Positions 5,384 to 36,865 of a DNA stretch of 64,000 nt are shown here, piece after piece. This DNA comes from an uncultured Aliarcobacter sp. (GTDB lineage: Bacteria; Campylobacterota; Campylobacteria; Campylobacterales; Arcobacteraceae): positions 224,001 through 288,000 of the forward strand of contig CAXXLV010000001.1 in assembly GCA_963664305.2 (NCBI GenBank), read 5' to 3'. Below the pieces are notes generated by a model. That model was not told where the DNA came from. It was given only the letters and a program-made list of their open reading frames with translations, and did not search any database. The first letter of the stretch is position 1; each line of letters opens with the position of its first letter. The position numbers and the translations under genes are program-made.

Positions 5384-5608
5384 TTATATTTTAAATTCTT
5401 GTTCTACATTTTTTGCTATTAACTCACCTTTTAAAGTTAAAAATGAATCGCTAACAAACTCTTCAGTTTTTAGTTTTTTCAATAATTTTTTACCCTCTTT
5501 TAAAGTGAATAATCCTGTATTTTCTAATTTTAAAACTATATCGTTCAAAGATTCATTTGACTCTTTTTTTAAAATTGCTAGTAGTAAAATTTTTTCATTT
5601 ATATCCAT
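5384..5608 (-). CDS. Small hypothetical protein, possible winged-helix fold
   Basis: 74 aa, overlaps the upstream MFS stop. Helix pattern plus LTLKGE wing-end motif typical of wHTH domains. Confidence 0.6.
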   Translation of the reverse strand: MDINEKILLLAILKKESNESLNDIVLKLENTGLFTLKEGKKLLKKLKTEEFVSDSFLTLKGELIAKNVEQEFKI

Positions 5609-6780
5609 TTTAAAATCCTTGTGTAATAAAAAGCAAAGGCTAAAAAACCAATTCCTAAAAGTATAGTAATTATATCAGTAGAAATTAAACTTGCCATTAA
5701 TCCAATAAACAAAGTTGTAACGACACATGAGAGCATAAAAATCATATCATTATATGAAATCACCCTTCCTATATATTTTTCATCACAATTATTTTGTAAT
5801 AAAGCATAAGTAAATGACCATAAAGTCGTAGTACTAAGCCCAACAATAAATAAAGAGATTAATGAAATATAAAAATTACTTTGTGTTAAACTCCATAAAA
5901 TTATTGATAATCCTTGAAAAACTAATAAATAGTGTAAGTTCTCTTTTGTAACATATTTTGAAATAAACATTGGGCCAAACATAAGTGCAACTGCTCTTAC
6001 TGCATTTGAAAGTCCAATTGCAAGTGGAACAGAAATAATATATTTATACTCATTTTTTGCCAAAATAGTTATCAATGCGTCAAAAGATGTAAGTCCAACA
6101 CTTGAATGTAAAAATATCAAATGAAGTATTAATTTATTGTTTTTTATATAAATAAATCCATCTTTTATTAGTTGAAATATTTTATCTGTTGTTTGGCTAG
6201 CTTTTACAACAAAATCTATTCTAATAAAAACAAATAATGCTATTGCAAAAATTACAGCATCTATAATAAAAGCTGTTTTATGTCCAAAAGAGTTTACAAC
6301 AAATCCACTAACAGCCATTCCAACAGCATAAGTAAATGACCAAATGATTGAATGTATTTCATTTGCCATTTGAAGTGGTTTTCCATTTAAAAGTTTTGCT
6401 AAAAGTGACATCTCTGTTGAAAAAAACATAGAAGCTGCACTCATTCTAATAAATATCAAAATCATCAAAAACCAAATTTGTTCTTTATTATCAATAGTTA
6501 AAAATAAAATTGTCATCAATAACTCTGTTGATAATAAGAAAATCATTAAAGGTTTGATTTTTACCCTATCAATAATTGCCCCAGAAATTGGAGCAATTAA
6601 TATTGCAGGAATAAAATGCATTGCAGTTACTACTGAAATTGCCATTTCAGTTGAGCCAAAATCAACAAGCATTGTATATATTGCTACGTTTGAAAACCAA
6701 GCACCAAAATATGCTATAAATTGAACTAAAGATAAATCTCTTATTATCTTATGTTCACGAAATAATTTACGATAATTCAA
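5599..6780 (-). CDS. MFS transporter (H+ antiporter-like)
   Basis: 393 aa, about 12 hydrophobic segments, MFS motif A-like SGAIIDRVKIK and IGRV motif. Confidence 0.9.
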   Translation of the reverse strand: MNYRKLFREHKIIRDLSLVQFIAYFGAWFSNVAIYTMLVDFGSTEMAISVVTAMHFIPAILIAPISGAIIDRVKIKPLMIFLLSTELLMTILFLTIDNKEQIWFLMILIFIRMSAASMFFSTEMSLLAKLLNGKPLQMANEIHSIIWSFTYAVGMAVSGFVVNSFGHKTAFIIDAVIFAIALFVFIRIDFVVKASQTTDKIFQLIKDGFIYIKNNKLILHLIFLHSSVGLTSFDALITILAKNEYKYIISVPLAIGLSNAVRAVALMFGPMFISKYVTKENLHYLLVFQGLSIILWSLTQSNFYISLISLFIVGLSTTTLWSFTYALLQNNCDEKYIGRVISYNDMIFMLSCVVTTLFIGLMASLISTDIITILLGIGFLAFAFYYTRILKWI

Positions 6781-8473
6781 TTTCTACTAAGACCTCTTGA
6801 TACATTGCAGAAAATGAACTTTCATCTTCATTTGCAGGTGTTAAATAGTTAGCATTTTTATTTCCTGCAAAAAAGAATGCACAATTTTCTTTTATATCAT
6901 CATCTATTTTTACTATAAATTTTGCACTTCCATATTTTGATGAAATATTTACAATATCACCATCTTTAAACTTTGTAGAAGAATTTAAATAAACAAAATC
7001 ATCTTTTGAGAATTGAGAATTTAATGAATTTTTATTTTTTGCAGTAATAAAATAGAAGTTATTTTGCGTTTTTTCTTTATAAAGTGGTTCAACATCTAAT
7101 TCGTCTAAAAATTCAAATGTTTCAAACTCTTCTAATTTTGGTTTATGATTTTCAAAATAAGAGATTATTTCATCTTCACTTTGAAGTTTTTCAAAACTAA
7201 ATTTTTCTAATAAAAAGTTTGTTAATTCATATTCGCTAATACTATCTTGTGTTTTTTCTTTTACAATTTGAGAAATAGATTTTAATTCATGTCCATAAGA
7301 TAATCTAACATCTCTTTTACTTAAAAATGAAGTTGAAGGAATAATTAAATTTGCATATTCACAAGTCTCATTTAAAGTTGTTCCAAAATATACCACAAAA
7401 CTATTTTGTAAACCTTCTATCACTTTTTTTGTATTTGGATGTGAAACAACTGGATTTGCACCTTGAATAAATACTAAATCAAAAGAAGAAAAATCAACTT
7501 TAGGAATTGAAACTTTTTTATTATTTCCTTTTATTTCAAAAGGTTTTTTATATCCAAAAGCAGAATCACTTAAATACCAAACTCCTCCTGCATCTTTTTT
7601 ATGATATCCCATAAAAGCTGCAAAAGAATCAATACATCTTGTGATTTGAGCTCCTTCAAAATATTTTTGAACTCCAAGCCCTACCATTATTGCAACAGTT
7701 TTATTCTCTATTAAATCAAAAAAGTCATTAACTTGTGAAAGAGGGATTCCAGTTGTTGCTTCATAAGAAACAACTGGTCTTCCCCTTGAAATATCAAAAA
7801 AATCATCTGCATTGTTTCCAAATTCTTCAATAAACTCTTTATCTTCTAAATCTTGCATATGAGCAAATCTTGTAAGTAATAAAGCTAATTCATAATCTGT
7901 TTTTGGATTTATTTGCATATGAATTTTTGATTTCTTTGCTATATCTGTAGAAACTGGGTCAATTGTTACAAAAGTTTTATCTTTTACTAAATTATACATA
8001 TGAGATGAAGTAACACTAAAATTTCTTCCCCAAACAACTATTACATCAGCATTGATAAGTTTTTCTAAAGGAGGATTTATAACATTTGTACGCCCTGCTT
8101 CAATTCCAGCACCACCTCCACCATCACATAAACTACCTCTTGTTAAAGTTGAACCATATAAAGTAAAAAAGTTTTTAGTTACACTTTGCATAACTCCAAT
8201 ATTTCCACTTCCCTTATAAAAAAGTGTTTTTATTGGTGTTGTTTGTTTTAATTTATCAACTAAAATATTTAAAGATTTATCCAATGAAATCTCTTCACCT
8301 TGATAAATTGCTTTTTCTAAATTTTTTTCTTTTAATAAATTTGCAAAATTAACACATAACTTTCCATTTGTAGTTTTATGTTCTTTTGAGCCTTTTATAT
8401 TATCTTCAATTATTTGTCCTTGACATGCATCGTAACAGTCAAGTGGACATGCTACTTTATTATTTGAATTCAA
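6767..8473 (-). CDS. Molybdopterin-dependent oxidoreductase (DMSO-reductase superfamily, uncharacterised YoaE/YyaE-like subgroup)
   Basis: N-terminal CPLDCYDAC...GKLC Fe-S motif; GSLCDGGG putative Mo ligand; VVWGRN, GANPVVSHPN, ETCEYANLIIP, SLNSQF. Confidence 0.85.
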   Translation of the reverse strand: MNSNNKVACPLDCYDACQGQIIEDNIKGSKEHKTTNGKLCVNFANLLKEKNLEKAIYQGEEISLDKSLNILVDKLKQTTPIKTLFYKGSGNIGVMQSVTKNFFTLYGSTLTRGSLCDGGGGAGIEAGRTNVINPPLEKLINADVIVVWGRNFSVTSSHMYNLVKDKTFVTIDPVSTDIAKKSKIHMQINPKTDYELALLLTRFAHMQDLEDKEFIEEFGNNADDFFDISRGRPVVSYEATTGIPLSQVNDFFDLIENKTVAIMVGLGVQKYFEGAQITRCIDSFAAFMGYHKKDAGGVWYLSDSAFGYKKPFEIKGNNKKVSIPKVDFSSFDLVFIQGANPVVSHPNTKKVIEGLQNSFVVYFGTTLNETCEYANLIIPSTSFLSKRDVRLSYGHELKSISQIVKEKTQDSISEYELTNFLLEKFSFEKLQSEDEIISYFENHKPKLEEFETFEFLDELDVEPLYKEKTQNNFYFITAKNKNSLNSQFSKDDFVYLNSSTKFKDGDIVNISSKYGSAKFIVKIDDDIKENCAFFFAGNKNANYLTPANEDESSFSAMYQEVLVEIELS

Positions 8474-9167
8474 TTTTTACCAACCTTGAAAATTGTTGAG
8501 CATTTGTTACAATCAATTCAACTTTATATGCTGAAATATTTGTACTATCTGCTACATCATAAATTTTTGATATTTTTATATCACTTTTAATTCCATCTAA
8601 ATATATCTCTTTATTTTTTATCTCTTCAATTTGTGCAATAGGAACAAAAATTTCTAATTTTCCTTTTGATAAATCTTTTGCTTCATAAAGTAAAGTTCCA
8701 GGAGTTACATAATCTCCCTCTTTTACAGCTATATTAAAAACATAATTTGATTTTTCAACCAATTTTTTATTAGAAATCGTATCTTTTAAAGTTTCTATTT
8801 TTATTAGCATATCTGCTTTTGAACTTTCAAGATTTATCACTTTTAATTTTTGTGTATCTTTTTCAAAAGCTGATTTTGATGTTACTTGATTTAATCTATC
8901 ATAATTATTTTGTTCGATTTTTAACATCTCATCAATAAATCTTAATTTATTTTTTGATTGTTCCAACTCTACTTTATCAACATTTGAATCCAATTCTACA
9001 ATAGTTGTATTATTTGCTTGTAAACCTTCTATTTTAGAATTTGAGAAAACAACCTTTCCTGCAGTTGCAGCTTTTACTTGATAACTCTCTATTGGTTCTA
9101 ATTTTGCATAATATTCATTTGCAAAAATAGATGTAATCATAATCATTGATAATAAAAAAACTTTCAT
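8460..9167 (-). CDS. HlyD-like periplasmic adaptor (membrane fusion) protein
   Basis: Signal peptide; lipoyl half-motifs VKAATAGKVV and VKEGDYVTPG flanking a coiled-coil hairpin. Confidence 0.75.
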   Translation of the reverse strand: MKVFLLSMIMITSIFANEYYAKLEPIESYQVKAATAGKVVFSNSKIEGLQANNTTIVELDSNVDKVELEQSKNKLRFIDEMLKIEQNNYDRLNQVTSKSAFEKDTQKLKVINLESSKADMLIKIETLKDTISNKKLVEKSNYVFNIAVKEGDYVTPGTLLYEAKDLSKGKLEIFVPIAQIEEIKNKEIYLDGIKSDIKISKIYDVADSTNISAYKVELIVTNAQQFSRLVKIEFK

Positions 9168-9175
9168 ATTTTTCC

Positions 9176-10624
9176 TTATAATTTTAATTGTTTCAAAATA
9201 TTAATAATCTCTTTTTTTAATATTTTGGAATCTTCTTCTTTTTCCAATCTAAAAATCAATTCATCTAATCTGGAGTCAATTTTTAAATATATTGCTAAAA
9301 TTTTGATTAATTCATTTTTGCTTTTTGATTCTTTTACTTTTTTTAATAAAGGATAAGATTCATCTTTATTTTTTCTTTTTGAAGTTATAACATAAAAATA
9401 TAAACTTACTGTTAATAATGAAAAAATAACACCCAAAACAAAATATAATATTTTATCTTCAAGGGAAGTTTTTTCAATTATTTTTACAACTTCCTTTGTT
9501 TCAGTGTTTTTATCTGCTTTTTCTAAAAAACTCTCTTTTACTTTCTCTTCTTCGACTTCAATTTTATAACTTTTAGTTGTCTTAGTTACAACTTTTTCTC
9601 CATTTTTATCAAAATATTCAAAAGTTATACTTGGAATTTCAAAAGATTTATTAGAAACTATAGAAAATGTTTTTTCATAAGTTCCCTCATACTTATCATC
9701 TGAAATATATGTTTTTATTTCTGGTTTATTTTCATAAATTGTTACATCAGATAAAGGAAGTTTAATATCTGAAATGTCATCAAAATTCCCACTTCCTGTT
9801 ATTTTTAATTTATAAGAAACTGCTTCCCCTGATTTGATTTTTTCTTTATCAATTGTTGACTCAATTTCAAAGTCACCTATAATTTTTATATTTTGGGGTA
9901 ACTCTTTTATTTTAAGATTTAGTTCATTTGAATATATATTTATATCTTTTGTTGCAGAAAAATATGATTTGAAACTTTCATCAATCACTTGAGCTTGAAA
10001 TAAAATTGGATTTATAAATAAATTTCCACTTTTTAAAGGTGTCAATAAAAATTTTAATTCTATAACATCAAAATCATTCTCTTCATATTTTTTTGAATCA
10101 TCAATTTGTTTATACCAAAAACCATCAAAATTTGGTTTACTTAAAGATAATCCAACTATTTTTGCATCTTTTTTATGTTTAAAAATAATTTTTAAAATAA
10201 AATTTTCACCAACATAAAACTCATTTTTATCAGTTTTAATACTCAAATCAAAAATATCAGATTTTGTTTTTGAAGCTTTTTCTATAATTATATTTTTTTC
10301 TTTAGTTTTAACTTTTTTCCCATCAACTTCAAATTCTAAAGATGGAAAAATAAAATCTTTTGTTGGAAATAAAGAGTATCTTTTTTTTATAACTTTTGAA
10401 ACTTTTCCATTAATTATATTTGTAGAAACTGAACTAGAAATCTCTTGTACAAGATTACCATCAATTGAAGATAAATCAGGAAATTTTATCTCTTCTGCTG
10501 AAATTTCAATAGTAAAAACTAAAGGTTCACCCAAAGTAACTTTTTCATTTACATATAAATTTACACTAGCAAAAAGTGATATTACAAAAAACTGAAATAA
10601 AAAAAATATTTTAATAAGTTTCAT
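9176..10624 (-). CDS. BatD-family protein
   Basis: Signal peptide; three Ig-like repeats (VTLGEP, FYVGENF, IKSGEAVSYKLKITGSGN); STNIING motif; C-terminal TM helix. Confidence 0.8.
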   Translation of the reverse strand: MKLIKIFFLFQFFVISLFASVNLYVNEKVTLGEPLVFTIEISAEEIKFPDLSSIDGNLVQEISSSVSTNIINGKVSKVIKKRYSLFPTKDFIFPSLEFEVDGKKVKTKEKNIIIEKASKTKSDIFDLSIKTDKNEFYVGENFILKIIFKHKKDAKIVGLSLSKPNFDGFWYKQIDDSKKYEENDFDVIELKFLLTPLKSGNLFINPILFQAQVIDESFKSYFSATKDINIYSNELNLKIKELPQNIKIIGDFEIESTIDKEKIKSGEAVSYKLKITGSGNFDDISDIKLPLSDVTIYENKPEIKTYISDDKYEGTYEKTFSIVSNKSFEIPSITFEYFDKNGEKVVTKTTKSYKIEVEEEKVKESFLEKADKNTETKEVVKIIEKTSLEDKILYFVLGVIFSLLTVSLYFYVITSKRKNKDESYPLLKKVKESKSKNELIKILAIYLKIDSRLDELIFRLEKEEDSKILKKEIINILKQLKL

Positions 10625-13889: not shown

Positions 13890-15190
13890 TGTAAAACCTT
13901 TCTAAAATTTGCAATAGTATTATCAAAAGACATAGTTTCTTGAGTATCTTGTGTCAAGAATTCTCTTATTTTTTCTTTTTTACCCATTGCGTTATCAAGT
14001 TCAGGGTCCATACCTGTTTTGTATGCACCAACTCTTACTAAAACTTCATTCTCTTTTATTAGTGATAATACTCTTTTTAACTTTAAAAAATCATTATAAT
14101 GTTCTTTTGTAACAACCTTATCCATTACCCTTGAAGCGGATTTTAGAAGATTTATAGGTGGATAAAATCCTTGTTCAGTTAATTCTCTTGTTAATACAAT
14201 ATGTCCATCTAAAATTGACCTACTTTGATCAGCAATTGGATCATTCATATCATCACCATCAACTAAAACAGTAAAAAAAGCAGTAATTGAACCTTTTTGA
14301 TTATTTCCTGCTCGTTCCATTAATTGAGGTAATAAAGAGAATACAGAAGGTGGATAACCACGACTAACAGGTGGTTCTCCTGTACTTAAACCTATTTCTC
14401 TTTGTGCCATTGCAAACCTTGTCACTGAGTCCATCATAAGTAAAACATCATGCCCTTTATCTCTAAAAAACTCTGCAATTGCCATTGCTGTAAATGCACC
14501 ATATTTTCTCATTAAAGCAGATTCATCTGATGTTGCAGTTACTATAACTGTATTTTCAAGATTATTATTTAAATTATAATGAATAAATTCAGGAATTTCA
14601 CGTCCCCTCTCTCCAATTAATGCAACAACTTTTATCTGAGCTTCACAACCTTTTACAATCATTCCCATTAAAGTTGATTTTCCAACTCCAGAACCTGCAA
14701 AAATACCTACTTTTTGACCTTTTCCACAAGTAAGCATAGAATCAATTGCTTTTACACCCGTTCCAAATCTTTTATCAATAATTCCTCTTTCAAGTGCTGG
14801 CATTGAAAGTTTATTTATTGCAGCATTTTCTTCTAAATTTCTTATTTTCCCTTTATTATCTATTGGTTCACCTAAAGCATTTACAACTCTTCCTAATAAA
14901 CCATACCCACATTTAACATTAAGTCCATCTTTTTGTAAATATACTTTATCATGAATTCGAAAACCTTCAATAAAAGAGAAAGGAACAATAGTAAAATTTG
15001 TATCGTTAATTGAAGCTACCATTCCCAAAACTGTGTATAAATGCTGAACTGATTCTATTTTTACAATATCTCCAACAGCAACTTCAAGACCTGTTGCAGT
15101 TAATGTTGTAGTTGAAATATTTGTGATTCTTCCAAATGCGATAGATAAGTTTGTTGGATCAATTTTATTTAATATATCATCTATATTCAT
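13886..15190 (-). CDS. fliI: Flagellar export ATPase FliI
   Basis: Walker A FAGSGVGKS; LIGERGRE; MDSVTRFAMAQREIGL. Confidence 0.97.
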   Translation of the reverse strand: MNIDDILNKIDPTNLSIAFGRITNISTTTLTATGLEVAVGDIVKIESVQHLYTVLGMVASINDTNFTIVPFSFIEGFRIHDKVYLQKDGLNVKCGYGLLGRVVNALGEPIDNKGKIRNLEENAAINKLSMPALERGIIDKRFGTGVKAIDSMLTCGKGQKVGIFAGSGVGKSTLMGMIVKGCEAQIKVVALIGERGREIPEFIHYNLNNNLENTVIVTATSDESALMRKYGAFTAMAIAEFFRDKGHDVLLMMDSVTRFAMAQREIGLSTGEPPVSRGYPPSVFSLLPQLMERAGNNQKGSITAFFTVLVDGDDMNDPIADQSRSILDGHIVLTRELTEQGFYPPINLLKSASRVMDKVVTKEHYNDFLKLKRVLSLIKENEVLVRVGAYKTGMDPELDNAMGKKEKIREFLTQDTQETMSFDNTIANFRKVLQ

Positions 15191-17184
15191 TACATCTCAT
15201 CACACATTTTTTTATAAAGACTATCTGATGTATCTTTAACTTCTTTACATTTTAATATATATTCATCTTTTTTTGTTTTATTCCCTAAATTATCATATAA
15301 ATTTAAAACATCATAATAAATTTTAACCTCATCATTTGGTTTAATTTTTCTTGTATTTTCTAATGCTTCAAGAAGATAATCAACAGATTTTTGATAGTTA
15401 TTATTATCTTTTTCAATTCTAGATAATTCGTTTTCAACAAAAGGTGAATATATATAAGCTTTAAAATCTTTTTGTTTATTATATAACTTTTTAATCACTT
15501 CATTTGCTTGTTTTTTATCTTCATTCTTCATTAAATACAAATAATAATCATGATAAAAATCAATAATTACAGGATTTGATTCATTTAACTTTATAAAATT
15601 TGGATATAAAGATGCATAAATAAAGAATTTTTCCATGAAATTTGGATTATCTTTTATTTTATTAATTTGATATCTATAAATAAACTCATTCGCTAAAACA
15701 TTTTTATCATCAACCATTTCAACCTTTGATGAAAAATCAAAGGCATCATCAATTAAACCTAAAGAAAATGCCATTCTTTCAAGATATAAATATATATTTG
15801 CATCCCTTGTTTTATTAAACGTCTCTTTTATTTGATGATAAGCTCTTTCATAAGGAGCTTCTACTAGACATTCAAAGAAGTTATATTTAACACTTTCATC
15901 TTCGATTAATTTTTCCAAAGTTTCACTTCTCGAAGTTCTTAAAATATCATTTAATTCTGAACATTTACCTTGTGATAAATAATCCTTAATTAAATCCATA
16001 TTAACTTCATCAAATATGTCATCTATACTGTCATAACCAAATCTTTTTACTATTTCATTTGATACTTTTCTATATACTTTTTCTGTTTTTAAAACTTGTT
16101 CAAATTTTCTATCATTTTTATCATTCATCAACTCTTGTAACAAGGCTTTTTGTTGCATTGCTTCTATGTCTTGATATTTTGTTGCAACTGCACTTGGAGT
16201 TAAAAATCCTTGTCTCATTAATATCTCATCTATAAACATTTTTGAGTTTTTAGCATGGATTCCTTGAGGATAATCATTAATAACATCTTTATATAAGTCT
16301 TTTGCTTTTTCCAAATAATAATTTGTTTTATCATACATTAACATATATGTATTTGCTAATTTATATTTAAAATCTTCAATTGCATCATCTTTTGTTGTTC
16401 TTTTTAATAATTCAGTTAAAATTTCTGCTGCATGTTCTGGCATTCCAGCTTTTATTAAACGATTAACTTTTTTATTTGCAAGATAAGAATCATTTGCATA
16501 AAACTCTATATTATTTTTTAGAACTTGTGTAATTAGCTCATTTGCTTTATCAAATTTTTCATCTAAAATATAAACATCAAATAATTCATCAGCTACTAAA
16601 GTCGCTACTTCTTTATTATTTGTAACAGTTAAAATTTCATAAAGATACTTAATTGCTTTTGTATAATCTTTTTGATATTTATAAACTTTTGCAAGAGAAA
16701 TTTTTCCATAGGTTTTTGTTAATTCATCATCAAAATTATCAATTATTACTTGAGCAAAATATTTTGCATCATCCATTTTATTTACTTCTAGTTTTAGTTC
16801 TACTAATAACATATAAGCTTTTGATAAATCATTTTGATTAATTAATGAAGAGTTTATTGCATTTTCAAGTTCTGTTGAGGCTTCTAAAATCAACCTTTTT
16901 GATTGTTTTTTTAAAGCTAATTCTGCATATAAAATCATAATATCAGAAGTTAAAACTTTTACTTTATTTTTTTCTTTAAAATCTTTTATTTGAGAATATG
17001 CTTCATCTATCTTATCATCTCTTGCTAATAACCTAGCATTTTGGATTATATCAAAACCATCAGTAATAGATTGTTTTCTCTCTTCAGAAATCTGTTCCCC
17101 TGATGAATCAATAAAGCTATAGTAAAAATCTTTTTTTGCGTATAAAATATTTACTAATAAAAAAATTGTTAATATTAATTTCAA
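15190..17184 (-). CDS. pflA: Periplasmic TPR protein, PflA (paralysed flagellum A)-like motor scaffold
   Basis: TTG start, signal peptide, all-helical TPR pattern (e.g. KDVINDYPQG), located between flhB and fliI. The name is inferred from context and remembered family features. Confidence 0.55.
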   Translation of the reverse strand: MKLILTIFLLVNILYAKKDFYYSFIDSSGEQISEERKQSITDGFDIIQNARLLARDDKIDEAYSQIKDFKEKNKVKVLTSDIMILYAELALKKQSKRLILEASTELENAINSSLINQNDLSKAYMLLVELKLEVNKMDDAKYFAQVIIDNFDDELTKTYGKISLAKVYKYQKDYTKAIKYLYEILTVTNNKEVATLVADELFDVYILDEKFDKANELITQVLKNNIEFYANDSYLANKKVNRLIKAGMPEHAAEILTELLKRTTKDDAIEDFKYKLANTYMLMYDKTNYYLEKAKDLYKDVINDYPQGIHAKNSKMFIDEILMRQGFLTPSAVATKYQDIEAMQQKALLQELMNDKNDRKFEQVLKTEKVYRKVSNEIVKRFGYDSIDDIFDEVNMDLIKDYLSQGKCSELNDILRTSRSETLEKLIEDESVKYNFFECLVEAPYERAYHQIKETFNKTRDANIYLYLERMAFSLGLIDDAFDFSSKVEMVDDKNVLANEFIYRYQINKIKDNPNFMEKFFIYASLYPNFIKLNESNPVIIDFYHDYYLYLMKNEDKKQANEVIKKLYNKQKDFKAYIYSPFVENELSRIEKDNNNYQKSVDYLLEALENTRKIKPNDEVKIYYDVLNLYDNLGNKTKKDEYILKCKEVKDTSDSLYKKMCDEM

Positions 17185-24947: not shown

Positions 24948-25247
24948 TTATTTATTATTTTTACTTAAAAAATCAAATAACATATCACTTATTCCTAATG
25001 TCCCACTTGAACCATCAGCTACAGATTGAATATACATACTCTTGATAATATCTGAACCTGGACTTTCACCTGCAATATTTGTAGAACGTAATGAAACATC
25101 TAATATTTGATTTAAGAAAAATGATTCAAAATCATTACTAACTTTTCTTAATGTTTCTTCATCATTAATATTTTCAGATTTTATATTATCAAACTTTTTT
25201 GTTTGTAAAACATCACTATTGATTAAGTTATTGCTATTTATTTCCAT
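24948..25247 (-). CDS. flgJ: Single-domain rod-capping protein FlgJ (no muramidase)
   Basis: LRKVSNDFESFF, DIIKSMY, GISDML rod-binding motifs. Confidence 0.85.
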   Translation of the reverse strand: MEINSNNLINSDVLQTKKFDNIKSENINDEETLRKVSNDFESFFLNQILDVSLRSTNIAGESPGSDIIKSMYIQSVADGSSGTLGISDMLFDFLSKNNK

Positions 25248-26026
25248 TATTCCAACCTATCAAAGAAATTTTCTTCACTTAATATATCTTGTTGATTATC
25301 CTGAGAAAAGAATCTCATTTCAACTCTTCTATTATCAGCTGCAACATCACTTTTTGGATGATAAGAACCATATGCTGAAACTTTTAAAGTTGCTGGATCT
25401 ATCTTATTTTTTATTAATTCTTTTACAACAGAAATTGATCTTAATGCAGAAATATCCCATGCATCTCTTGGTATTTTATCACTAATTACTCTATTTGTAT
25501 CAGTATGACCAATTATTTCTATATTAAATGTTTGAGGCATCGTTCTAATAACCCTTGCAATTTTTGAAATAAAGATTTTTGCACTTTGGTTTGTTAATTC
25601 ATATTGACCATCTTCAAACATAATTGTTGAAGGAATATCCAATGTAAATTCGTTTTTACCTTTTTCTATACTAATTTCTTGAGATTCAATATTTTGATTT
25701 GAATTTAATTCCTCAACCATTTGAGAAACTTCTTGAACACTATTATCAAATGAACTCTCACTTGATTCATTATTATTTTGTGACTCTGAATTTGTACTAT
25801 CTTTTGTAGAATACGAATCACTTTGTGTTTCAACATCTGTTGAAGCATCAATAAATCCCATTGCCTTCTTCATAATATCGAAATATTCTTCAACTTTCTT
25901 TTTATCCATTACTGCCATAGAAAGTAAAAGAATAAAAAAAGTTAGTAACAAAGACATTAAATCCCCAAATTGAACTAACCATCCAGGTAAACATTTTGGG
26001 CATTCAGGACATTTGTTTTTAGCCAT
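25247..26026 (-). CDS. motB: Stator B subunit (MotB/PomB-type)
   Basis: WLVQFGDLMSLLLTFFILL TM with the essential Asp22; OmpA-like domain IIGHTD, WDISALR, NRRVE. Confidence 0.95.
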   Translation of the reverse strand: MAKNKCPECPKCLPGWLVQFGDLMSLLLTFFILLLSMAVMDKKKVEEYFDIMKKAMGFIDASTDVETQSDSYSTKDSTNSESQNNNESSESSFDNSVQEVSQMVEELNSNQNIESQEISIEKGKNEFTLDIPSTIMFEDGQYELTNQSAKIFISKIARVIRTMPQTFNIEIIGHTDTNRVISDKIPRDAWDISALRSISVVKELIKNKIDPATLKVSAYGSYHPKSDVAADNRRVEMRFFSQDNQQDILSEENFFDRLE

Positions 26027-26035
26027 AATTATACT

Positions 26036-26791
26036 TTATTCTATAACTTCAGTTAAAATTGCATTTAATTGCATTTTTATATTACCAATTGATTCTTCTG
26101 CTGCAATCATTGCTGCACCATGAATTATAACTTCACAAGCTGTAACTTCAACACTATGTTTTTGAGACAACTTATTTTCCATAATTCCAGCAAATAATGT
26201 ACCTAATAATGCTCCATACATTGTTGTAAGTAAGGCAACTGCCATTGCAGGTCCAACAGAAGCTGGGTCAGATAAGTTAGCAAGCATTGCTACAAGACCA
26301 ACAAGAGTTCCAATCATTCCCATAGCTCCAGCTGTTCCACCAATATTTCCAAAAATACTAATCATTACAGAATGTCTTTTTTCCATATGTTCTAATTTTA
26401 ATTCCATTAAAGGTTGTAATACATCTGGTTTAGTTCCATCAACTAATAATTGAAAAGCTTCTTTAAAAAAAGGATTTGTTTCTTGTAATACTTTTTGTTC
26501 AATTTGCATTACACCATGTTTTTTTATTTCTGTTGCATAAAATACAATTTTTTCTACTAATTCTGGTAAAGGCTCTACTTTTACTCCATTCATAGCAATT
26601 TTCATTGCAGGTACAATTCTTTTTAAATCTTTTCCTTCAAACTGTCCAGCAGTAACTGCAATAGTTCCACCAAAAACAATTACAACAGATGGAATATCAA
26701 TATATGGACCAAAACCAACTCCACCTAAAATAATTGCAAGTGCAACTAACGCCCATCCTGCTCCTAAACCACCAACTGTACTCTTATCCAT
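26036..26791 (-). CDS. motA: Stator A subunit (MotA/PomA-type)
   Basis: IVFGGT, QLLVDG, GMIGTLVGLVAML, GPAMAVALLTTMYG. Confidence 0.95.
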   Translation of the reverse strand: MDKSTVGGLGAGWALVALAIILGGVGFGPYIDIPSVVIVFGGTIAVTAGQFEGKDLKRIVPAMKIAMNGVKVEPLPELVEKIVFYATEIKKHGVMQIEQKVLQETNPFFKEAFQLLVDGTKPDVLQPLMELKLEHMEKRHSVMISIFGNIGGTAGAMGMIGTLVGLVAMLANLSDPASVGPAMAVALLTTMYGALLGTLFAGIMENKLSQKHSVEVTACEVIIHGAAMIAAEESIGNIKMQLNAILTEVIE

Positions 26792-28067: not shown

Positions 28068-30065
28068 CTATAGAGATTCTAGGTACTCATCAAATCCAAC
28101 AAGTTTAAAATCTATTAAAGAATCTAAATAAGGTTGAGTTAAAAATTGTTTTGCACTTGATATTTTAAGTTCTTGTATTAACTGTATTGCAGTTAAGAAA
28201 TCTGCATCAGGATCATTTAAAATAGCTTTTATTAATGAAATTTGAATTGAAGCATCATTATATCTTCCTGCTTCTAAAAGTGCTGCAACAATCAAATACA
28301 TTGTATATTTATCTTCTAATTTATATTCACTTTGTAAATATTCCAATGTTTTTATAGTTTCGTCAGGAAGATTGAAATGTAAATCTCTCAATGCTTTTGT
28401 TCTAAGATAAGAAGGAGTATTTTTACCTGTTATTTTTAAATCTGCTTTAGTAAATATTCCCAATGCTTTTAATATATCAATATAATATCTAGTAATAATC
28501 AATGGTCCATCTAAAAAATTGTTATTTAAAGTTAAAGGAATTGAATCTTGTAATCTTGAATGATAAACATAATCACTCTCTTTTTCTCTTCTTTGTACAA
28601 GTCTAATTAAAAATGTTAAAGGATCTTTTATATATTCATCCAATAACGGCTGATTTAATAAAGGTTGATTTTCATTCATTGCCTTTAAAAATTCCAATGA
28701 TTTATAAAAAATTGTATTCTCATAGTTTAATGGTTGATCAGCGAAAGTAAATTGTGGATTTAAAAATAATCTATAAATCTCTTTTCCAAAATAATTATAC
28801 AAACCATTACTAGTTTTAATAGTTGTTTCAATATATTCTTTATCTTTAATTTTTACATTTATTCTATTTGCTGATATTAAAAACATTGTAGAATAAAGTT
28901 TATTTCCTGGATTTAATTTATAGGCTTTTTCAAAATATTTAAAGGCATTGTGAAAATCATTTATCTGAGCACAAGAAAGTGCTAAATTATAATAAATATA
29001 TGATTTTGTATCTTTTGTTAACATTTTTTTTAATTCAGAAACTCTAATAATTGGGTCTTCTTTAACTATCTTTAAAAATTTTGAATTATAATCAACCATC
29101 TCTTCTAAATTTAGAATACTCTCTTTTTGACTATATATAAATCCTTTTACTGTATCATAAATAATTTCTTGAGAATCTGAAAAAATAAAAGGAGCAAAAT
29201 AAAAAATAAAATCAATCTTTCTTGATTCATCAAATTTTAAAACAGAATCAAAATACTGCTTTGAAGTAAATTTATTTTTATTGAAATAAATTTCTAGAGG
29301 TAATTCTATATTAGCTTTAAATGTACTTCTTCTTTCATTTATTAACTCTAATGTTTCTTTTAATTTATCTAATTGATTTAATTTTAAATCTGTAAAACTT
29401 AAAATCCATAAAATTTTATCTAATGTATTTGGATTAACATTTTGTTCTTTTGCTTTTCGTAATAATAATGAAGCTTTTTCATAATCTTTTAGTTTTATAT
29501 AAACAAGTGCTTTTTTTAAATCCATTGTATAATCCATTGAATTTAAAACTTCTAGCGCATTTTCATACTCTTTTAAAATTATATATGTATCAGCCAACAT
29601 TCTTTTAGTATGTTCAGAAAGGTTTTTATATTTTTTAGAAACTTTTACAATAGTATCAAGATACTTATTGTCTTTTGAAATTTGATATAAATAATAACAA
29701 GCTGACATATAAGAAAAAGTATCAGCTTTTACATTATTTTCATTTTCATATATCTTATTTAAATAAACAATTGCATTATCAATTGATCCCAATTTATAAT
29801 ATGCTATTCCCATGTTTAAAAAAGATGGTATTTGAAGTATTTTAGAAGTTTTTTTAAATAATTCTATAGCCTCTTCATACTCATTTTTACTTAAATGTAA
29901 AACTGCTTTATTAAAATCAACTTGTAATGCTAAATTTTCTTGTGATTTTTCTAATTTCTCAAATTGAAAAATTATTTCTGGCTGAGATTCGATTAAATCA
30001 TTAGCATTCAAAATAGAATTAAAAATATAAATAGTAAAAAATGTTTTGAACAATAATTTTATCAA
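28068..30065 (-). CDS. pflB: Periplasmic TPR protein, PflB-like
   Basis: TTG start, signal-peptide-like N-terminus, TPR motifs FLNMGIAYYKLG and YYNLALSCAQINDFHNAFKYFEKAYKLNPGN resembling remembered PflB repeats; flagellar context. Confidence 0.6.
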   Translation of the reverse strand: MIKLLFKTFFTIYIFNSILNANDLIESQPEIIFQFEKLEKSQENLALQVDFNKAVLHLSKNEYEEAIELFKKTSKILQIPSFLNMGIAYYKLGSIDNAIVYLNKIYENENNVKADTFSYMSACYYLYQISKDNKYLDTIVKVSKKYKNLSEHTKRMLADTYIILKEYENALEVLNSMDYTMDLKKALVYIKLKDYEKASLLLRKAKEQNVNPNTLDKILWILSFTDLKLNQLDKLKETLELINERRSTFKANIELPLEIYFNKNKFTSKQYFDSVLKFDESRKIDFIFYFAPFIFSDSQEIIYDTVKGFIYSQKESILNLEEMVDYNSKFLKIVKEDPIIRVSELKKMLTKDTKSYIYYNLALSCAQINDFHNAFKYFEKAYKLNPGNKLYSTMFLISANRINVKIKDKEYIETTIKTSNGLYNYFGKEIYRLFLNPQFTFADQPLNYENTIFYKSLEFLKAMNENQPLLNQPLLDEYIKDPLTFLIRLVQRREKESDYVYHSRLQDSIPLTLNNNFLDGPLIITRYYIDILKALGIFTKADLKITGKNTPSYLRTKALRDLHFNLPDETIKTLEYLQSEYKLEDKYTMYLIVAALLEAGRYNDASIQISLIKAILNDPDADFLTAIQLIQELKISSAKQFLTQPYLDSLIDFKLVGFDEYLESL

Positions 30066-30454: not shown

Positions 30455-32581
30455 TTATCTTTTTAAGTTTATTAATGTATTTAATAAATCGTCAGATGTT
30501 GTAATTGATTTAGCATTAGCTTCAAATGCTCTTTGGAATACCATAAGATTAACTAAACTTTCACTTAAATCAGCTGTACTTAATTCTAATGTTTTTCCCA
30601 TAACAGAAGCTGTTTTATTATTATTTAAATTGTAAACAGGATCTCCTGATTCATTTGTTTTTGCTAATAAGTTATTCCCAACTGGATTTAATCCTCTATT
30701 ATTATTAAATACTGCAATTGCAATTTGTCCAATTGCGAACTCTGCACCATCTTGTTTCATTGTGATTAAACCTGTACTATCAACTGAGAATTCTCCAAAT
30801 GCTGAATCTGAGATTCCTAATGTATCAAGTCTTAATTGTAAGCTTCCTTTTGATGATGTTTGATCAACTTTATTTACTATTTCAATAAACTCAGCTCCAG
30901 CACCTTTTCTTCCTGAATAATTTGCATTTACATCTATTGGAGTTAAATTCCCAACTATTCCAGCTGCTGTTCCAGTATTATCATCTGAAACTTTTAACGT
31001 ACCTGTAAATTCAACATCATAATTTTCATCTAATGTTTGAATTACTAAATTACCATTTACATTTCTTGCTTCAACATATTTTGATAAATCTGGATTAGCA
31101 TTTATTTGAGAAACAAAATCATCAACAGTAGATGCATTATCAATTACCATTTCAACAACTTGAGGCGGTGTTGCACCATCATTTGGAACAGGAATATTTT
31201 GTCCTAATTCTTTATCAAAAATTGTTATTGCATAAGTAAAGTCTCTTTGTGTTCCATCTAATATTTGAGTTGGAGTATACACATCTTGTTGTTTACCAGT
31301 TATCAATTTTGATAAAGCGTCTCTTGATGTTTCTAATCCAGCAATTCCAGAACCTTTTTCAGCTGAAGTGGTTGTTTGGTAATTTCCTTGAATAGTTACA
31401 CCACTAGCTACTTCACCTACTTCAGAAATTTTAAATTCTTCACCAGGTATTAATGATTTTATTTGAATAATACCTTTTAACATATCTCCTGAATTTGTTG
31501 ATGCAGTATAACTTTCACCTGTATTAAATACATCTGCTCTTCCTGAATCAATTGCCATTGTAGCAACTAATCCAGGTATTTGAGATATTTGATCTGCTAA
31601 AGCTTTATAAGTCGCTATCTTCCCTGCAGCTTTATCATATGCAGCAATTGCAGCTTCATATGCTGGTGTTGTAGGAGATGGAGCCGGTACTAATGTTGAA
31701 GGGTCTGTTAATCCCTCAGCTGTTCTATCTGCTACACTTAAAGAATCCCATAAATCTTGTCTAAATGATTGAGTTGATGAAGTAACTAAGAAATTTTGTG
31801 AATATTTATTTCCATCGATATATACATAAATTTGATGCCCATCACTACCTATTATTGAATCTGATCCAGATTTAAAATTAATTTGAGATGTTTGAGCAAT
31901 AGATGTTGCAGATAAAGCATCTGGTTCATCTTTTAATTTTTGTAACCAAGAAGTATAATCTTTAATTGCTTCTTCAATATCTGATACTTTTGCTGATTTA
32001 GTTTTTGCACCATCACCACTAAATACAGTCGTTGAATCAGATTTTGCCGTTAAACTATAATCAGTTGACTTTGCTGTAACTGTTTCTACATAAGTACTAT
32101 GTCTAATTACTTTTGAACTTAGTAATTTTGTATAATCTGAAGTGAATACACTTGTATTTGGATTTGTACTAGTTACATCTTTTTGACTATCAATTGGACT
32201 CATCATCCAACCTTGAACTTCATTACCACCAGCATCTTGAAGGGTTCCATTGTCACCCATTCTAAAGTTTCCTGCTCGTGTATAATAAGTCTCAGCTGTA
32301 CCTATAGTATTTTTATTAATAACACTAAAAAATCCATCACCATCTAATGCCATATCATAATTTACACCAGTTAATTTAGTACCACCCTGAGTGTATAGCT
32401 TTTCAGAATCAAGTATTAATGATCCTTTTCCTATTCTATCTTGATACATTTGATCCGCAAAAGAAATTCTTGAAGCTTTATATCCAATTGTATTTACGTT
32501 TGCAATATTATTAGATTCATTATCTAATGCTTTTTGTTGTGAGGCTAATCCTGAGATCCCTGTCCAAAGTGCACCTATCAT
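30455..32581 (-). CDS. flgE: Flagellar hook protein FlgE (long paralogue)
   Basis: SNNIANVNTIGYK, YTRAGNF, LELSTADLSESLVNLMVFQRAFEANAKSITTSD. Confidence 0.92.
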   Translation of the reverse strand: MIGALWTGISGLASQQKALDNESNNIANVNTIGYKASRISFADQMYQDRIGKGSLILDSEKLYTQGGTKLTGVNYDMALDGDGFFSVINKNTIGTAETYYTRAGNFRMGDNGTLQDAGGNEVQGWMMSPIDSQKDVTSTNPNTSVFTSDYTKLLSSKVIRHSTYVETVTAKSTDYSLTAKSDSTTVFSGDGAKTKSAKVSDIEEAIKDYTSWLQKLKDEPDALSATSIAQTSQINFKSGSDSIIGSDGHQIYVYIDGNKYSQNFLVTSSTQSFRQDLWDSLSVADRTAEGLTDPSTLVPAPSPTTPAYEAAIAAYDKAAGKIATYKALADQISQIPGLVATMAIDSGRADVFNTGESYTASTNSGDMLKGIIQIKSLIPGEEFKISEVGEVASGVTIQGNYQTTTSAEKGSGIAGLETSRDALSKLITGKQQDVYTPTQILDGTQRDFTYAITIFDKELGQNIPVPNDGATPPQVVEMVIDNASTVDDFVSQINANPDLSKYVEARNVNGNLVIQTLDENYDVEFTGTLKVSDDNTGTAAGIVGNLTPIDVNANYSGRKGAGAEFIEIVNKVDQTSSKGSLQLRLDTLGISDSAFGEFSVDSTGLITMKQDGAEFAIGQIAIAVFNNNRGLNPVGNNLLAKTNESGDPVYNLNNNKTASVMGKTLELSTADLSESLVNLMVFQRAFEANAKSITTSDDLLNTLINLKR

Positions 32582-32626
32582 GATATATCCTTTATATTAA
32601 GGTTTAATGAACTTTATATATGTTCA

Positions 32627-32658
32627 TATATTAATACTTTAATTAAAGTACTAATATA
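32627..32658 (-). terminator. Stem-loop between the two flgE paralogues
   Basis: On the mRNA strand UAUAUUAGUACUUU-AAUU-AAAGUAUUAAUAUA, a 14-bp stem with one G-U pair. Confidence 0.55.
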
Positions 32659-32664
32659 AAAACA

Positions 32665-34134
32665 CTATCTTATCATATCTATAGCAGTTTTTATAAACTC
32701 ATCTGAAGTAGTAATAGATTTTGAATTTGCTTCAAATGCTTTTTGATAAATTAATAATGTACTTAAAGTATTTCCGAAATTAATATTAGCATTTTCTAAA
32801 GAATTTGAAACTAGTGTATTCATTTTATCAGCATTATATGGTGTTCCTGATTCTTTAGTTTCTCTAAAATAATTTCCACCCTCTGCGTCTAATCCTTGCA
32901 CATTTTTAAAGTTTGCTGTTGATATTTTTCCTACTAAAAAATCATTATCACCTTCAGAAACGTAAACAAATCCATCATTTGAAATTGAAACCTCACCTTT
33001 TGCATCAGGTACTAATCCTAAAGAATTTAATCTAAGATTTATTTCACTATTACCAATCACTGCATTATTACCATATGCCAAAATATTTGTTATTTCCAAA
33101 AATTTTCCATCAGCTTTTTCAATAGCATTTTTTAATGCATTTCTAGATGTCTCCACCATAGCTAAACCTGAACCTAAAGTTGGATTTTGTAATTTAGATA
33201 CAGGTGCATATTCACTATTTACATTTGCATCAATAAGTGTAAACTCTTTTCCTGCAACTAATCCTTCAATAGTCAATATTCCTGTGTTTGTATCTACACT
33301 TGATTTAAATCCCTGACTATTTGAAATTCTGTCTGATAAATTTTTTAATGTTGTTTCTATATTTGTATCAAAATTTTCTCTTATTACACTATTATTAATT
33401 TTCACAGATATATAATCATTTTCATTTGTTAATTGACTTAACAATGAAGAAAAATCAACTTGCGAAATCTGAGGTAAAGAAGGCACTGATACTGCATCAG
33501 GGTTAGATTGGAAAAGTTTTAATTTTTCTATATAATCACTTCGTAATAATTCAGCATCGTTTATTTTTGAACTTGCGGTTTTGTAATTATTACCTTTTTG
33601 TGCATCTAAATCATCTATTGCTGATGAATAAAAATCTGTTGATTTTGCATTTACATTATATACTGTAATATCATTACTAATATCTAAAGAAGTGATATTT
33701 CTTGAAAATTCATTTGAAAAACTACTATCTGCAGCATTTGTTGAAACAACTGTTCTATTTTGAGGTAATAGTCCTAATACCTTCAAATTATTTTGTGATT
33801 CTAAAATTCCATCTTCTGCTTGTTGAAAATTACCTGCTCTTGTATAAAATGTTTCACCTGTCATTCTATCAGTTAAAATAAAAAAACCGTCCCCCTCTAT
33901 TGCAACATCCAAATTCACATTTGTTTGTTTAACATATCCTTGAGTAAATTGTTTATCTATACTTTGAGTTCCAACACCTTTTCCATATCTTGATTTGTAC
34001 ATTAAATCTTCAAATGTTATATCATCAAGTTTATGTCCAACAGTATTTGAATTTGAAGCATTATTTGATTCAACAGAAATCGCTTTGTCGAAGGTAGATA
34101 TACCTGTCATTCCATTCCATAATGCTCCAATCAT
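32665..34134 (-). CDS. flgE: Second hook-family protein (FlgE paralogue, short)
   Basis: SNNASNSNTVGHK, YTRAGNF, YQKAFEANSKSITTSDE; downstream of flgD. Confidence 0.85.
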   Translation of the reverse strand: MIGALWNGMTGISTFDKAISVESNNASNSNTVGHKLDDITFEDLMYKSRYGKGVGTQSIDKQFTQGYVKQTNVNLDVAIEGDGFFILTDRMTGETFYTRAGNFQQAEDGILESQNNLKVLGLLPQNRTVVSTNAADSSFSNEFSRNITSLDISNDITVYNVNAKSTDFYSSAIDDLDAQKGNNYKTASSKINDAELLRSDYIEKLKLFQSNPDAVSVPSLPQISQVDFSSLLSQLTNENDYISVKINNSVIRENFDTNIETTLKNLSDRISNSQGFKSSVDTNTGILTIEGLVAGKEFTLIDANVNSEYAPVSKLQNPTLGSGLAMVETSRNALKNAIEKADGKFLEITNILAYGNNAVIGNSEINLRLNSLGLVPDAKGEVSISNDGFVYVSEGDNDFLVGKISTANFKNVQGLDAEGGNYFRETKESGTPYNADKMNTLVSNSLENANINFGNTLSTLLIYQKAFEANSKSITTSDEFIKTAIDMIR

Positions 34135-35198: not shown

Positions 35199-35858
35199 CT
35201 ATATTACTAAATCTAATGATTCTAACATAGAAGCAACTTTTGCTTCTATATTTCCATCAAAATTACCTAAATCACTAGCTATTACAACTCCACCAGCTAC
35301 AACATTTGGATCTTGATGAAGTTCAATAAAAGCTTCCAAATTTAGTTGAGATTTCAAAATTGCATAATCTTTAGGATTTAAATGTATCTGTACTTTTGAT
35401 GCTGTTTTTATTTTTTCAAGAACATGAGAAATCGTTTGTTTTGCAATTTTTGCAGAATTTTCTCCAACTTCAATATTAATAATCTTTTGAGCAATTGCAA
35501 TTGAAGTTTTTAATAATTTAGTTTCCATTTGAAAAGTTGCTTGTTCAAAAAATGCTGCATAATGTTTCAAATCTTTTATTGCTTGAACAACTTGTGCATC
35601 TACATCTTTTCCTTTTATTCCATCATTTTCAATATTAGTCACTTTTTGAGAAATTTCATTTAATTTTTGACTTAAATTTCTTACTTCTATCAATAAAGGA
35701 TCAACTTTTCCATTAATTTCTCTATCATCTAAAATTGCATTTGAATTAGATACAGTATTTGTTTCAACTGGACTATTTATAAAACTACCTAATTCATATT
35801 TTTGAACTTCGTCATTTTTGCTTATAATTTTAGCACTTGAATATACATTATCTGCCAT
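35199..35858 (-). CDS. fliH: Flagellar assembly protein FliH
   Basis: IHLNPKDY, GGVVIASDLGNFDGNI; follows fliG. Confidence 0.9.
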   Translation of the reverse strand: MADNVYSSAKIISKNDEVQKYELGSFINSPVETNTVSNSNAILDDREINGKVDPLLIEVRNLSQKLNEISQKVTNIENDGIKGKDVDAQVVQAIKDLKHYAAFFEQATFQMETKLLKTSIAIAQKIINIEVGENSAKIAKQTISHVLEKIKTASKVQIHLNPKDYAILKSQLNLEAFIELHQDPNVVAGGVVIASDLGNFDGNIEAKVASMLESLDLVI

Positions 35859-36865
35859 TAGTTATTCTCTCTATCAATTAATCCATCTTCTATAAGCTTT
35901 TGAGCAACATCAAGCATTTTTCTTTGTGCAGCTTCTATATCTTTAATTTTAACTTTTGTAGTCATTTCAAACTCTTCTTTAAATCTATCTCTAGCTCTTT
36001 GTGACATTGAATTTGTTACTTTTTCCATAGCATCTTCAGTTGCATTTTTCATCGCAATTACAACATCATTTGTTTCAACATTTTGCAAAATTTTCATAAT
36101 ATGTTCTGTTTCTAAATTTAATAAATCTTCAAATACAAACATATTTTCTTTTATTTTTGTTGCTAATGAAGTATCAATACCATTGATATTTTTTAAAATA
36201 TCTTGTGCTTTTGGACCTAATTTATTTAACATATCTGCAACAACTTTTACTCCACCAACATCAACAATAGATGATAGTAAAGATTCTAGTTTTTTCTCTA
36301 AAACTACAGAAATAGTTCTTACAACATCAGGAGAAACATCTTTGATTGTTGCAATCTGAATTGTAACTTTAACTCTTATCTCTTCATCTAATTGCATTAA
36401 AACCTCTGCAGATTTTGCAGGATCCATATGAGATAAAATAACAGCAATTGTATGTGGTGATTCATCTTTAATGAAATCACTTAACTGTTTTGGATTAATT
36501 CCATCAAGATACGAAAATGCTTGCGAAGCAAGTTTCATTTTTGAAAGTTTTGCTAAAACTTCATCAGCTTCTGCTTTTCCTAATGATTTATATAAAATAT
36601 CTCTTGCAAAATCATATCCACCAGAACTAATAAAACCTTTTGTTCTTACATATAAATGGAACTCTTCAAGTATTGCTAAAGATACTTCTTTATTAATCGA
36701 TGATATTTGAGTAATTGCAGTAGAAATATTTTCTACCATATCTTTTTCTAAATGCTGAAAAATTTTAACTGTAGAATCTTCACCTATTAAAACGAAAAAT
36801 CTAGCTACTTTTTCTAGCATTGACATTCCTTTTAGAATGTCATGTTCATTTCTACTTTCTGCCAT
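35858..36865 (-). CDS. fliG: Motor switch protein FliG
   Basis: ESPHTIAVILS, GGVKVVADMLN, MFVFEDL, MSQRA. Confidence 0.97.
   Translation of the reverse strand: MAESRNEHDILKGMSMLEKVARFFVLIGEDSTVKIFQHLEKDMVENISTAITQISSINKEVSLAILEEFHLYVRTKGFISSGGYDFARDILYKSLGKAEADEVLAKLSKMKLASQAFSYLDGINPKQLSDFIKDESPHTIAVILSHMDPAKSAEVLMQLDEEIRVKVTIQIATIKDVSPDVVRTISVVLEKKLESLLSSIVDVGGVKVVADMLNKLGPKAQDILKNINGIDTSLATKIKENMFVFEDLLNLETEHIMKILQNVETNDVVIAMKNATEDAMEKVTNSMSQRARDRFKEEFEMTTKVKIKDIEAAQRKMLDVAQKLIEDGLIDRENN

Follow-up and report, generated by a model that had tools for sequence, protein, structure and literature searches.

A PomAB-like stator in an Arcobacteraceae flagellar gene cluster and a Campylobacter jejuni-type stator in the same genome

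Introduction

Which ion drives a Campylobacterota flagellar motor whose cluster encodes a stator resembling Vibrio PomAB, and how did such a stator come to lie among the genes of a Campylobacter-type motor? Motor papers on this phylum, in their accessible parts, treat the stators as proton-driven and do not separate two types (for example, PMC5758724 and PMC9321776). A preliminary description of the DNA analysed here, a 64,000-nucleotide stretch from an uncultured Aliarcobacter sp. (the window), had proposed a sodium-driven stator held by a PflA/PflB-type scaffold and regarded this as an unusual hybrid. Below, type 1 denotes the PomAB-like stator of the cluster kind and type 2 the C. jejuni-type MotAB.

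Results

The stator genes motA1 and motB1 belong to a large flagellar cluster, in which fliY precedes them and a flgJ-like gene follows. The window features used here are as follows:

15190..17184, minus strand: pflA candidate, TPR scaffold protein of 664 aa, between fliI and flhB
24948..25247, minus strand: flgJ-like rod-binding gene, downstream neighbour of motB1
25247..26026, minus strand: motB1, type-1 B subunit, 259 aa
26036..26791, minus strand: motA1, type-1 (PomA/MotP-like) stator A subunit, 251 aa
26795..27667, minus strand: fliY, upstream neighbour of motA1
28068..30065, minus strand: pflB, TPR scaffold protein, matching C. jejuni PflB (9leq_B, residues 50-635, E 1e-9)
35858..36865, minus strand: fliG, the rotor protein on which a stator acts (TIGR00207, above cut-off)

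Genes for the scaffold named in the preliminary description are thus present in the window. pflB was recognized by sequence and occupies the slot of PflB in Table S8 of Mo 2022 (PMC9321776). The pflA candidate gave no PflA match by sequence search; it has the slot and length of PflA in the same table, and the best-ranked Foldseek match for its low-confidence model (pLDDT 59) is 9hmf_K, from the C. jejuni scaffold (E 1.5e-9, TM 0.22). Together with two FlgO matches in the source genome (G000), the set typical of an Arcobacter-type motor (PflA, PflB and FlgO) is found, PflA by position and low-confidence fold. A search of G000 for MotY_N (PF18393) gave no match, yet control genomes gave none either. 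A promoter scan stayed at chance level (21 sites against 27.8 expected). The window also holds a tandem pair of FlgE-like hook genes (30455-34134; products of 708 and 489 aa). Behind flhA, in the same orientation, come genes for BatD-like, RND adaptor-like, molybdopterin oxidoreductase and MFS proteins (5599-10624).

Database comparisons support a PomAB/MotPS-like assignment of the cluster stator. The top PDB match of MotA1 is Vibrio PomA (E 2e-38), C. jejuni MotA reaching only E 4e-14. MotA1 passes no NCBIfam cut-off; its best model is PomA (NF006527, 174 bits against a cut-off of 341), and this score and a clade separate from Vibrio PomA place it outside the PomA equivalog. It is likewise outside the C. 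jejuni type, scoring 98 bits on NF006284 (cut-off 380) and reading T/T/T/A at the four ion-path sites described below. MotB1, whose transmembrane helix is PomB-like and whose periplasmic OmpA-like domain is of the Campylobacterota type, has NF006285 as its best model (131 against a cut-off of 250). Identity to V. parahaemolyticus is 36% for MotA1 with PomA and 26% for MotB1 with PomB; the named genera with close homologues of the pair are Poseidonibacter, Arcobacter, Marinarcus and Aliarcobacter. With its end at 251 aa (window 26036-26100), MotA1 has no NP-R motif in the region of PomA R232, which other type-1 proteins retain, and R88 is a lysine in MotA1.

To read the ion path, we aligned both subunits to the annotated V. 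parahaemolyticus PomA/PomB pair (L194), which places these codons:

25928..25930, minus strand: L33 (PomB L35), 11 residues after D22
25961..25963, minus strand: D22, the ion-binding Asp (PomB D24)
25973..25975, minus strand: V18 (equivalent to PomB G20V)
26183..26185, minus strand: I203, in place of PomA P199
26222..26227, minus strand: T189 and T190 (PomA T185 and T186)
26306..26308, minus strand: T162 (PomA T158)
26327..26329, minus strand: G155, in place of PomA P151; Gly in 116/116 Campylobacterota type-1 loci

The threonines T162, T189 and T190 lie in residues 156-170 (AMGMIGTLVGLVAML) and 175-193 (DPASVGPAMAVALLTTMYG) of MotA1, with A194 as the small residue at PomA 190. The alignment bears out the earlier equation of these threonines, and of the leucine at Asp22+11, with PomA T158/T185/T186 and PomB L35. 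In Vibrio numbering, MotA1 retains G154, M155, T158, L162, M165, L166, M179, A182, L183, T185, T186 and A190, and MotB1 retains D24, S27, L28, F32, L35 and S38; the departures are P151G, P199I and D148G in MotA1 and G20V and T21Q in MotB1. The triad, with Ala or Ser at 190, is kept in all 116 type-1 loci (some genomes being taken twice), and 59 of 59 type-2 loci read A/A/T/I at the same four sites, two of the three triad sites being Ala, so that the match is not due to chance. This split coincides with the Na+/H+ split in the accessible part of PMC10374538, according to which the three threonines constitute Na+ site 2 and H+ stators have two of them replaced by Ala, with Ile at 190.

The preliminary description had further held that H+-type stators lack the full threonine set. 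That is true of the type-2 loci but not of the H+-driven R. sphaeroides MotA, which has the triad (PMC11725901, as available). The three threonines are, moreover, the usual state in neighbouring representatives, occurring in 141, 133 and 139 of 142, respectively. Judged by these proteins, the triad is not diagnostic of Na+ coupling, and other positions have to be weighed. The cavity-I residues M165 and M179 of PomA and L35 of PomB, added to the ion path by PMC11725901, correspond to M169, M183 and L33. At the bottleneck formed by PomB S27, L28 and C31, MotB1 has S25, L26 and T29; C31T is reported to be neutral, and R. sphaeroides departs from Vibrio at these three positions (both PMC11725901), the Rhodobacter MotB that we compared reading T/N/A. 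The ligands of Na+ site 1 (PomA P151, PomB G20 and T21) are replaced by G155, V18 and Q19; two of the site-1 ligands are backbone ligands, and the accessible literature reports that PomB T21A retains motility. The cavity and the S/L/T states speak for Na+ use, and the triad in R. sphaeroides and neighbouring proteins, together with the altered site-1 ligands, G20V among them, speaks against it; Na+ use is hence likely.

These residues bear directly on the possibility that type 1 is a proton stator with ancestral threonines, like R. sphaeroides MotAB, the stators differing in load or torque. Pseudomonas MotAB and MotCD differ in just these respects. The R. sphaeroides precedent, the triad as the common state of the wider clade and the altered site-1 ligands all fit a proton stator, but the three B-subunit positions are Vibrio-like in type 1 and not in Rhodobacter MotB. 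We consider a proton-driven type 1 unlikely.

Position 20 of PomB raises a different alternative, a naturally promiscuous Na+/H+ stator corresponding to a natural PotB G20V form. Such a stator would run faster with Na+ and still run without it, and low-salt relatives could swim on type 1 alone. Valine occupies this site in 77/78 Arcobacteraceae loci. In the parts of PMC9683732 available to us, G20V in a PomA/PotB chimera gave Na+-free, phenamil-resistant rotation and was the sole site-20 variant to rotate without Na+, its speed still rising with Na+ or Li+. However, Val at this site is common, being found in 41/82 MotB sequences of the same study, and its effect in the Vibrio chimera may not be transferable; most other Campylobacterota type-1 loci (31/37) have Ala there. 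A promiscuous type 1, which overlaps with the explanation that we prefer, appears possible but rather doubtful.

Two further sets of residues depart from Vibrio. PomA P199 is replaced by I, V or L in 79/79 Arcobacteraceae loci and is Pro in 37/37 other type-1 loci. The phenamil-site residues are altered (equivalents of D148G, L17G, M19L and G20V), which makes insensitivity to phenamil unreliable as a refutation of Na+ coupling.

Co-occurrence with Na+ pumps gave no supporting pattern and was discarded as support: NqrB was found in 0/184 family genomes and MnhE in 25/184, with no match in G000. The lack of a detected Na+-NQR would suit both the proton-driven and the promiscuous alternative. In favour of Na+ use, OadB and NhaA each have two matches in G000 and CPA antiporters have five. 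Its oadB matches (C1:969729 and C2:575960) have identical scores, from a recent duplication or an assembly repeat.

Beyond the window, the source genome encodes a second stator, which the preliminary description had missed. An intact C. jejuni-type pair, motA2/motB2, lies outside the flagellar cluster (G000:C2:858502-860001), adjoining a response-regulator gene. With a score of 384.8 on NF006284, MotA2 exceeds the curated cut-off of 380; it reads A/A/T/I at the four ion-path sites and shares 24% identity with MotA1. MotB2 falls just short of the cut-off of NF006285, the best model of MotB1 (246.7 against 250). The pair carries the CPAGEKWAVPYAD motif as in 6ykm_F. The genome thus holds two intact stator pairs and one flagellar system, with one fliG-containing cluster in the window and one fliP match genome-wide, and wild-type swimming assays would be confounded by the second stator. 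In 22/30 Arcobacteraceae type-2 loci, a protein of ~135 aa with a CCLKK-like motif follows motB2 (L083-L108); it is absent there in G000 and is a possible stator accessory.

The orphan pair could be silent or non-flagellar in this genome, leaving one working stator, as its place outside the cluster and beside a response-regulator gene might suggest. Against this, neither reading frame is disrupted, and in 23 family genomes no stator other than its orthologue was found, fliG being kept in 3/3 of those checked. Table S8 of Mo 2022 (PMC9321776) also lists a single, orphan motAB for the motile A. butzleri. We therefore regard a silent motAB2 as quite improbable.

Of the 184 Arcobacteraceae genomes, 138 carry type 1 (125 of them without type 2), 36 carry type 2 (23 of them without type 1), 13 carry both and 23 carry neither; these counts are descriptive only, related genomes not being independent. 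Of 22 genera, 21 are represented among the type-1 genomes and 3 among those with type 2. Such a restricted type 2 argues against two proton stators that differ in load or torque; most other named Arcobacteraceae genera, those without type 2, are marine. In the source genus, the 44 genomes divide into 8 with type 1 only, 10 with both, 22 with type 2 only and 4 with neither. The 8 type-1-only genomes would suit a promiscuous stator, but the second stator kept elsewhere argues for conditions under which type 1 by itself is limiting. Both stators occur in the named A. caeni genome, and the A. butzleri, A. cryaerophilus and A. skirrowii proteins are type 2. A complete genome of the genus (G001) has neither a stator nor a fliG match and is likely non-flagellate.

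Type 1 extends to 11 of the 14 Campylobacterota families sampled. The 377 genomes of other families comprise 158 with a type-1-like stator (79 in one genus), 157 with a weak type-2-like match only, 8 with an intermediate third kind and 54 with none, classes assigned from E-values with residues checked in 37 type-1 and 30 type-2 loci. Dual genomes also occur outside Arcobacteraceae, four of them in three families. Proteins from C. showae and C. rectus belong to type 1, and some of these carry the label pomA in IMG. The third kind occurs in family f8 (G196, G246 and G250), its score being intermediate to both queries. Records titled Helicobacter (L070, L076) carry an Arcobacteraceae-type motA1 (70-71% identity) and are probably mislabelled bins.

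Gene order provides a view of the history of the two types. At 22 type-1 loci from 10 families outside Arcobacteraceae, fliP lies downstream in 20 and glmU upstream in 16, giving glmU-motAB-fliP as the conserved site; glmU or fliP neighbours type 2 in 0/60 loci. In 27 genomes picked as type-2-only, glmU faces fliP in 19, an estimated 94-399 nt apart with no motA between them, and the adjacency was not seen in the other 8. One of these genomes (G341) retains a type-1 motB C-terminal relic between glmU and fliP (L300:1178-1354), 57% identical to type-1 MotB of its genus against 32-34% for the best type-2 matches. In the source genus, fliY abuts flgJ in 5/5 type-2-only genomes examined (of 22). 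The locus tags in Table S8 of PMC9321776 agree with this gene order (13/15 Arcobacter rows). A further genome (G489, L154) has an empty glmU-fliP site and a type-1 pair elsewhere, by relocation or re-acquisition, so type 1 can also move. Because type-2-only genomes have such empty sites, type 1 is probably the ancestral Campylobacterota stator, repeatedly displaced by type 2; an ancestor with both types followed by differential loss fits as well.

Trees, computed as quick searches with SH-aLRT support only, separate the two A subunits. Type-1 MotA forms a branch of its own (98) within the triad-bearing proteins, with Vibrio and Aeromonas PomA lying elsewhere, and in a wider MotA tree four representatives fall within this branch. 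MotA1 does not group with C. jejuni MotA, as the sodium-type proposal had predicted. Type-2 MotA, on a long branch (100), falls with MotA of Bacillus and MotC-like proteins of Pseudomonas; forcing both types of MotA together costs 29 log-likelihood units and is not rejected (p-AU 0.106). The periplasmic MotB domains of both types, by contrast, form one branch (49/50 rows, SH-aLRT 98, 61 outgroups), the L185 domain falling outside it. This pattern suggests that type 2 is a chimera in origin, and shared AT-rich composition or duplication could also be its source. The periplasmic domains of two type-2 MotBs (L177 and L171, from G387 and G341) cluster with those of type 1 (support 92), which may reflect another domain swap.

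These data also bear on an import of Vibrio-like PomAB into a Campylobacter-type motor in the source lineage. The PomA matches in PDB and NCBIfam point that way, as do the two FlgO matches, FlgO being a Vibrio-like feature reported for Arcobacter (PMC5758724, as available). But the type-1 clade stands apart from Vibrio and Aeromonas PomA; MotA1 is closer to three of four other Campylobacterota type-1 proteins (41-45% identity; 37% to the fourth) than to Vibrio (36%); P151G is common across the phylum; and host-like GC3 of motA1/motB1 accompanies the Campylobacterota-type periplasmic domain. We consider such an import very improbable, and a recent one from Vibrio is ruled out by tree, GC3 and gene order. 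Of the hybrid originally proposed, the PomAB-like stator beside PflA/PflB stands, but its unusual character does not, given 11 of 14 families, a clade of its own and the conserved glmU-motAB-fliP site.

Discussion

Taken together, the residues make Na+ coupling of type 1, its promiscuous form included, likely. On balance, we favour a motor in which motA1/motB1 is Na+-driven or strongly stimulated by Na+ and motA2/motB2 is an exchangeable, proton-driven stator. Five MotA1 would surround two MotB1; Na+ would enter through the Vibrio-like hydrophobic cavity (M169, M183 and L33), bind T162/T189/T190 and pass to D22, and its passage would drive rotation of the MotA ring against FliG. The two stators would dock into a PflA/PflB/FliL ring by way of their related periplasmic MotB domains and be swapped with salinity, as happens in Shewanella. 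At low Na+, V18 may allow type 1 to conduct protons as well, and type 2 would have displaced the ancestral type 1 several times through a dual-stator state like that of the source genome.

More tentatively, and as a single joint reading, the ancestral Campylobacterota motor, a high-torque one, may have used a Na+-coupled stator still kept by most Arcobacteraceae and by C. showae, C. rectus and other host-associated species, the C. jejuni stator being a later chimera in which a foreign H+-type MotA and MotB helix were joined to the native scaffold-docking domain. Displacement would then have recurred through dual-stator intermediates, and the Arcobacteraceae version would turn without either conserved proline.

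Type 1 resembles Vibrio PomA/PomB (PDB 8BRD, 8BRI and 8ZYV) in the threonine triad, A190, cavity I (M165/M179/L35), S27/L28 and the Asp; it differs in forming a separate clade, in its PflA/PflB scaffold and in that its Na+ coupling is putative. A predicted Na+-type and H+-type pair in one genome recalls Bacillus MotP/MotS and the sets of B. subtilis and Shewanella oneidensis, each with one stator of either type (PMC6686046, as available). MotB1 shares with MotS the Leu and Ser at D+11 and D+14 but has Val at the third MotS-type position (PomB E41). Unlike in those organisms, dual genomes are here a minority (13/184), flanked by genomes with type 1 only and genomes with type 2 only, and the periplasmic domain common to both B subunits is specific to the phylum. 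C. jejuni MotA/MotB (PDB 6YKM) matches the orphan pair in type and is related to the periplasmic part of MotB1; the cluster MotA1 differs in its low score on the C. jejuni-type model and its low identity to MotA2. R. sphaeroides MotAB shares the PomA-like, triad-bearing A subunit and differs in being H+-driven and at PomB S27/L28/C31, where type 1 is S/L/T.

The closest imaged motor, that of A. butzleri, likewise has PflA, PflB and FlgO, and shows a 16-fold ring without stator density, read as dynamic stators (PMC5758724, as available). Its MotA, however, is type 2 and encoded outside the cluster, so that this motor is likely derived and not the usual state of the family.

Two motAB copies were already tabulated in 2022 for A. 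ellisii and Arcobacter sp. L (Table S8 of PMC9321776, 13/15 Arcobacter rows) and are not discussed in the accessible main text of that paper. The literature within reach, subscription papers mostly lying beyond it, gave no account of stator ion types in Campylobacterota and no experiment on ion dependence, and the available text of PMC12505986, PMC6686046, PMC12222027, PMC7787011, PMC11725899, PMC11870540, PMC13277936, PMC3765806, PMC2628731 and PMC6677748 contained no description of the type-1/type-2 split; sequences of type 1 may nevertheless figure in alignments that supplement the PomAB structure papers or in figure supplements to Mo 2022.

That two stators coexist in some genomes and that the presumed ancestral site stands empty in others is documented at the level of sequence. 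Should type 1 use Na+, the coupling ion would differ from the one assumed in roughly two fifths of the non-Arcobacter genomes sampled (158/377, half of them from one genus), oral campylobacters among them. The source genus holds all three states, type 1 only, both and type 2 only, and would offer a natural series for a change of coupling ion within one scaffold, with type 1 as a natural test of G20V and of two conserved MotA prolines.
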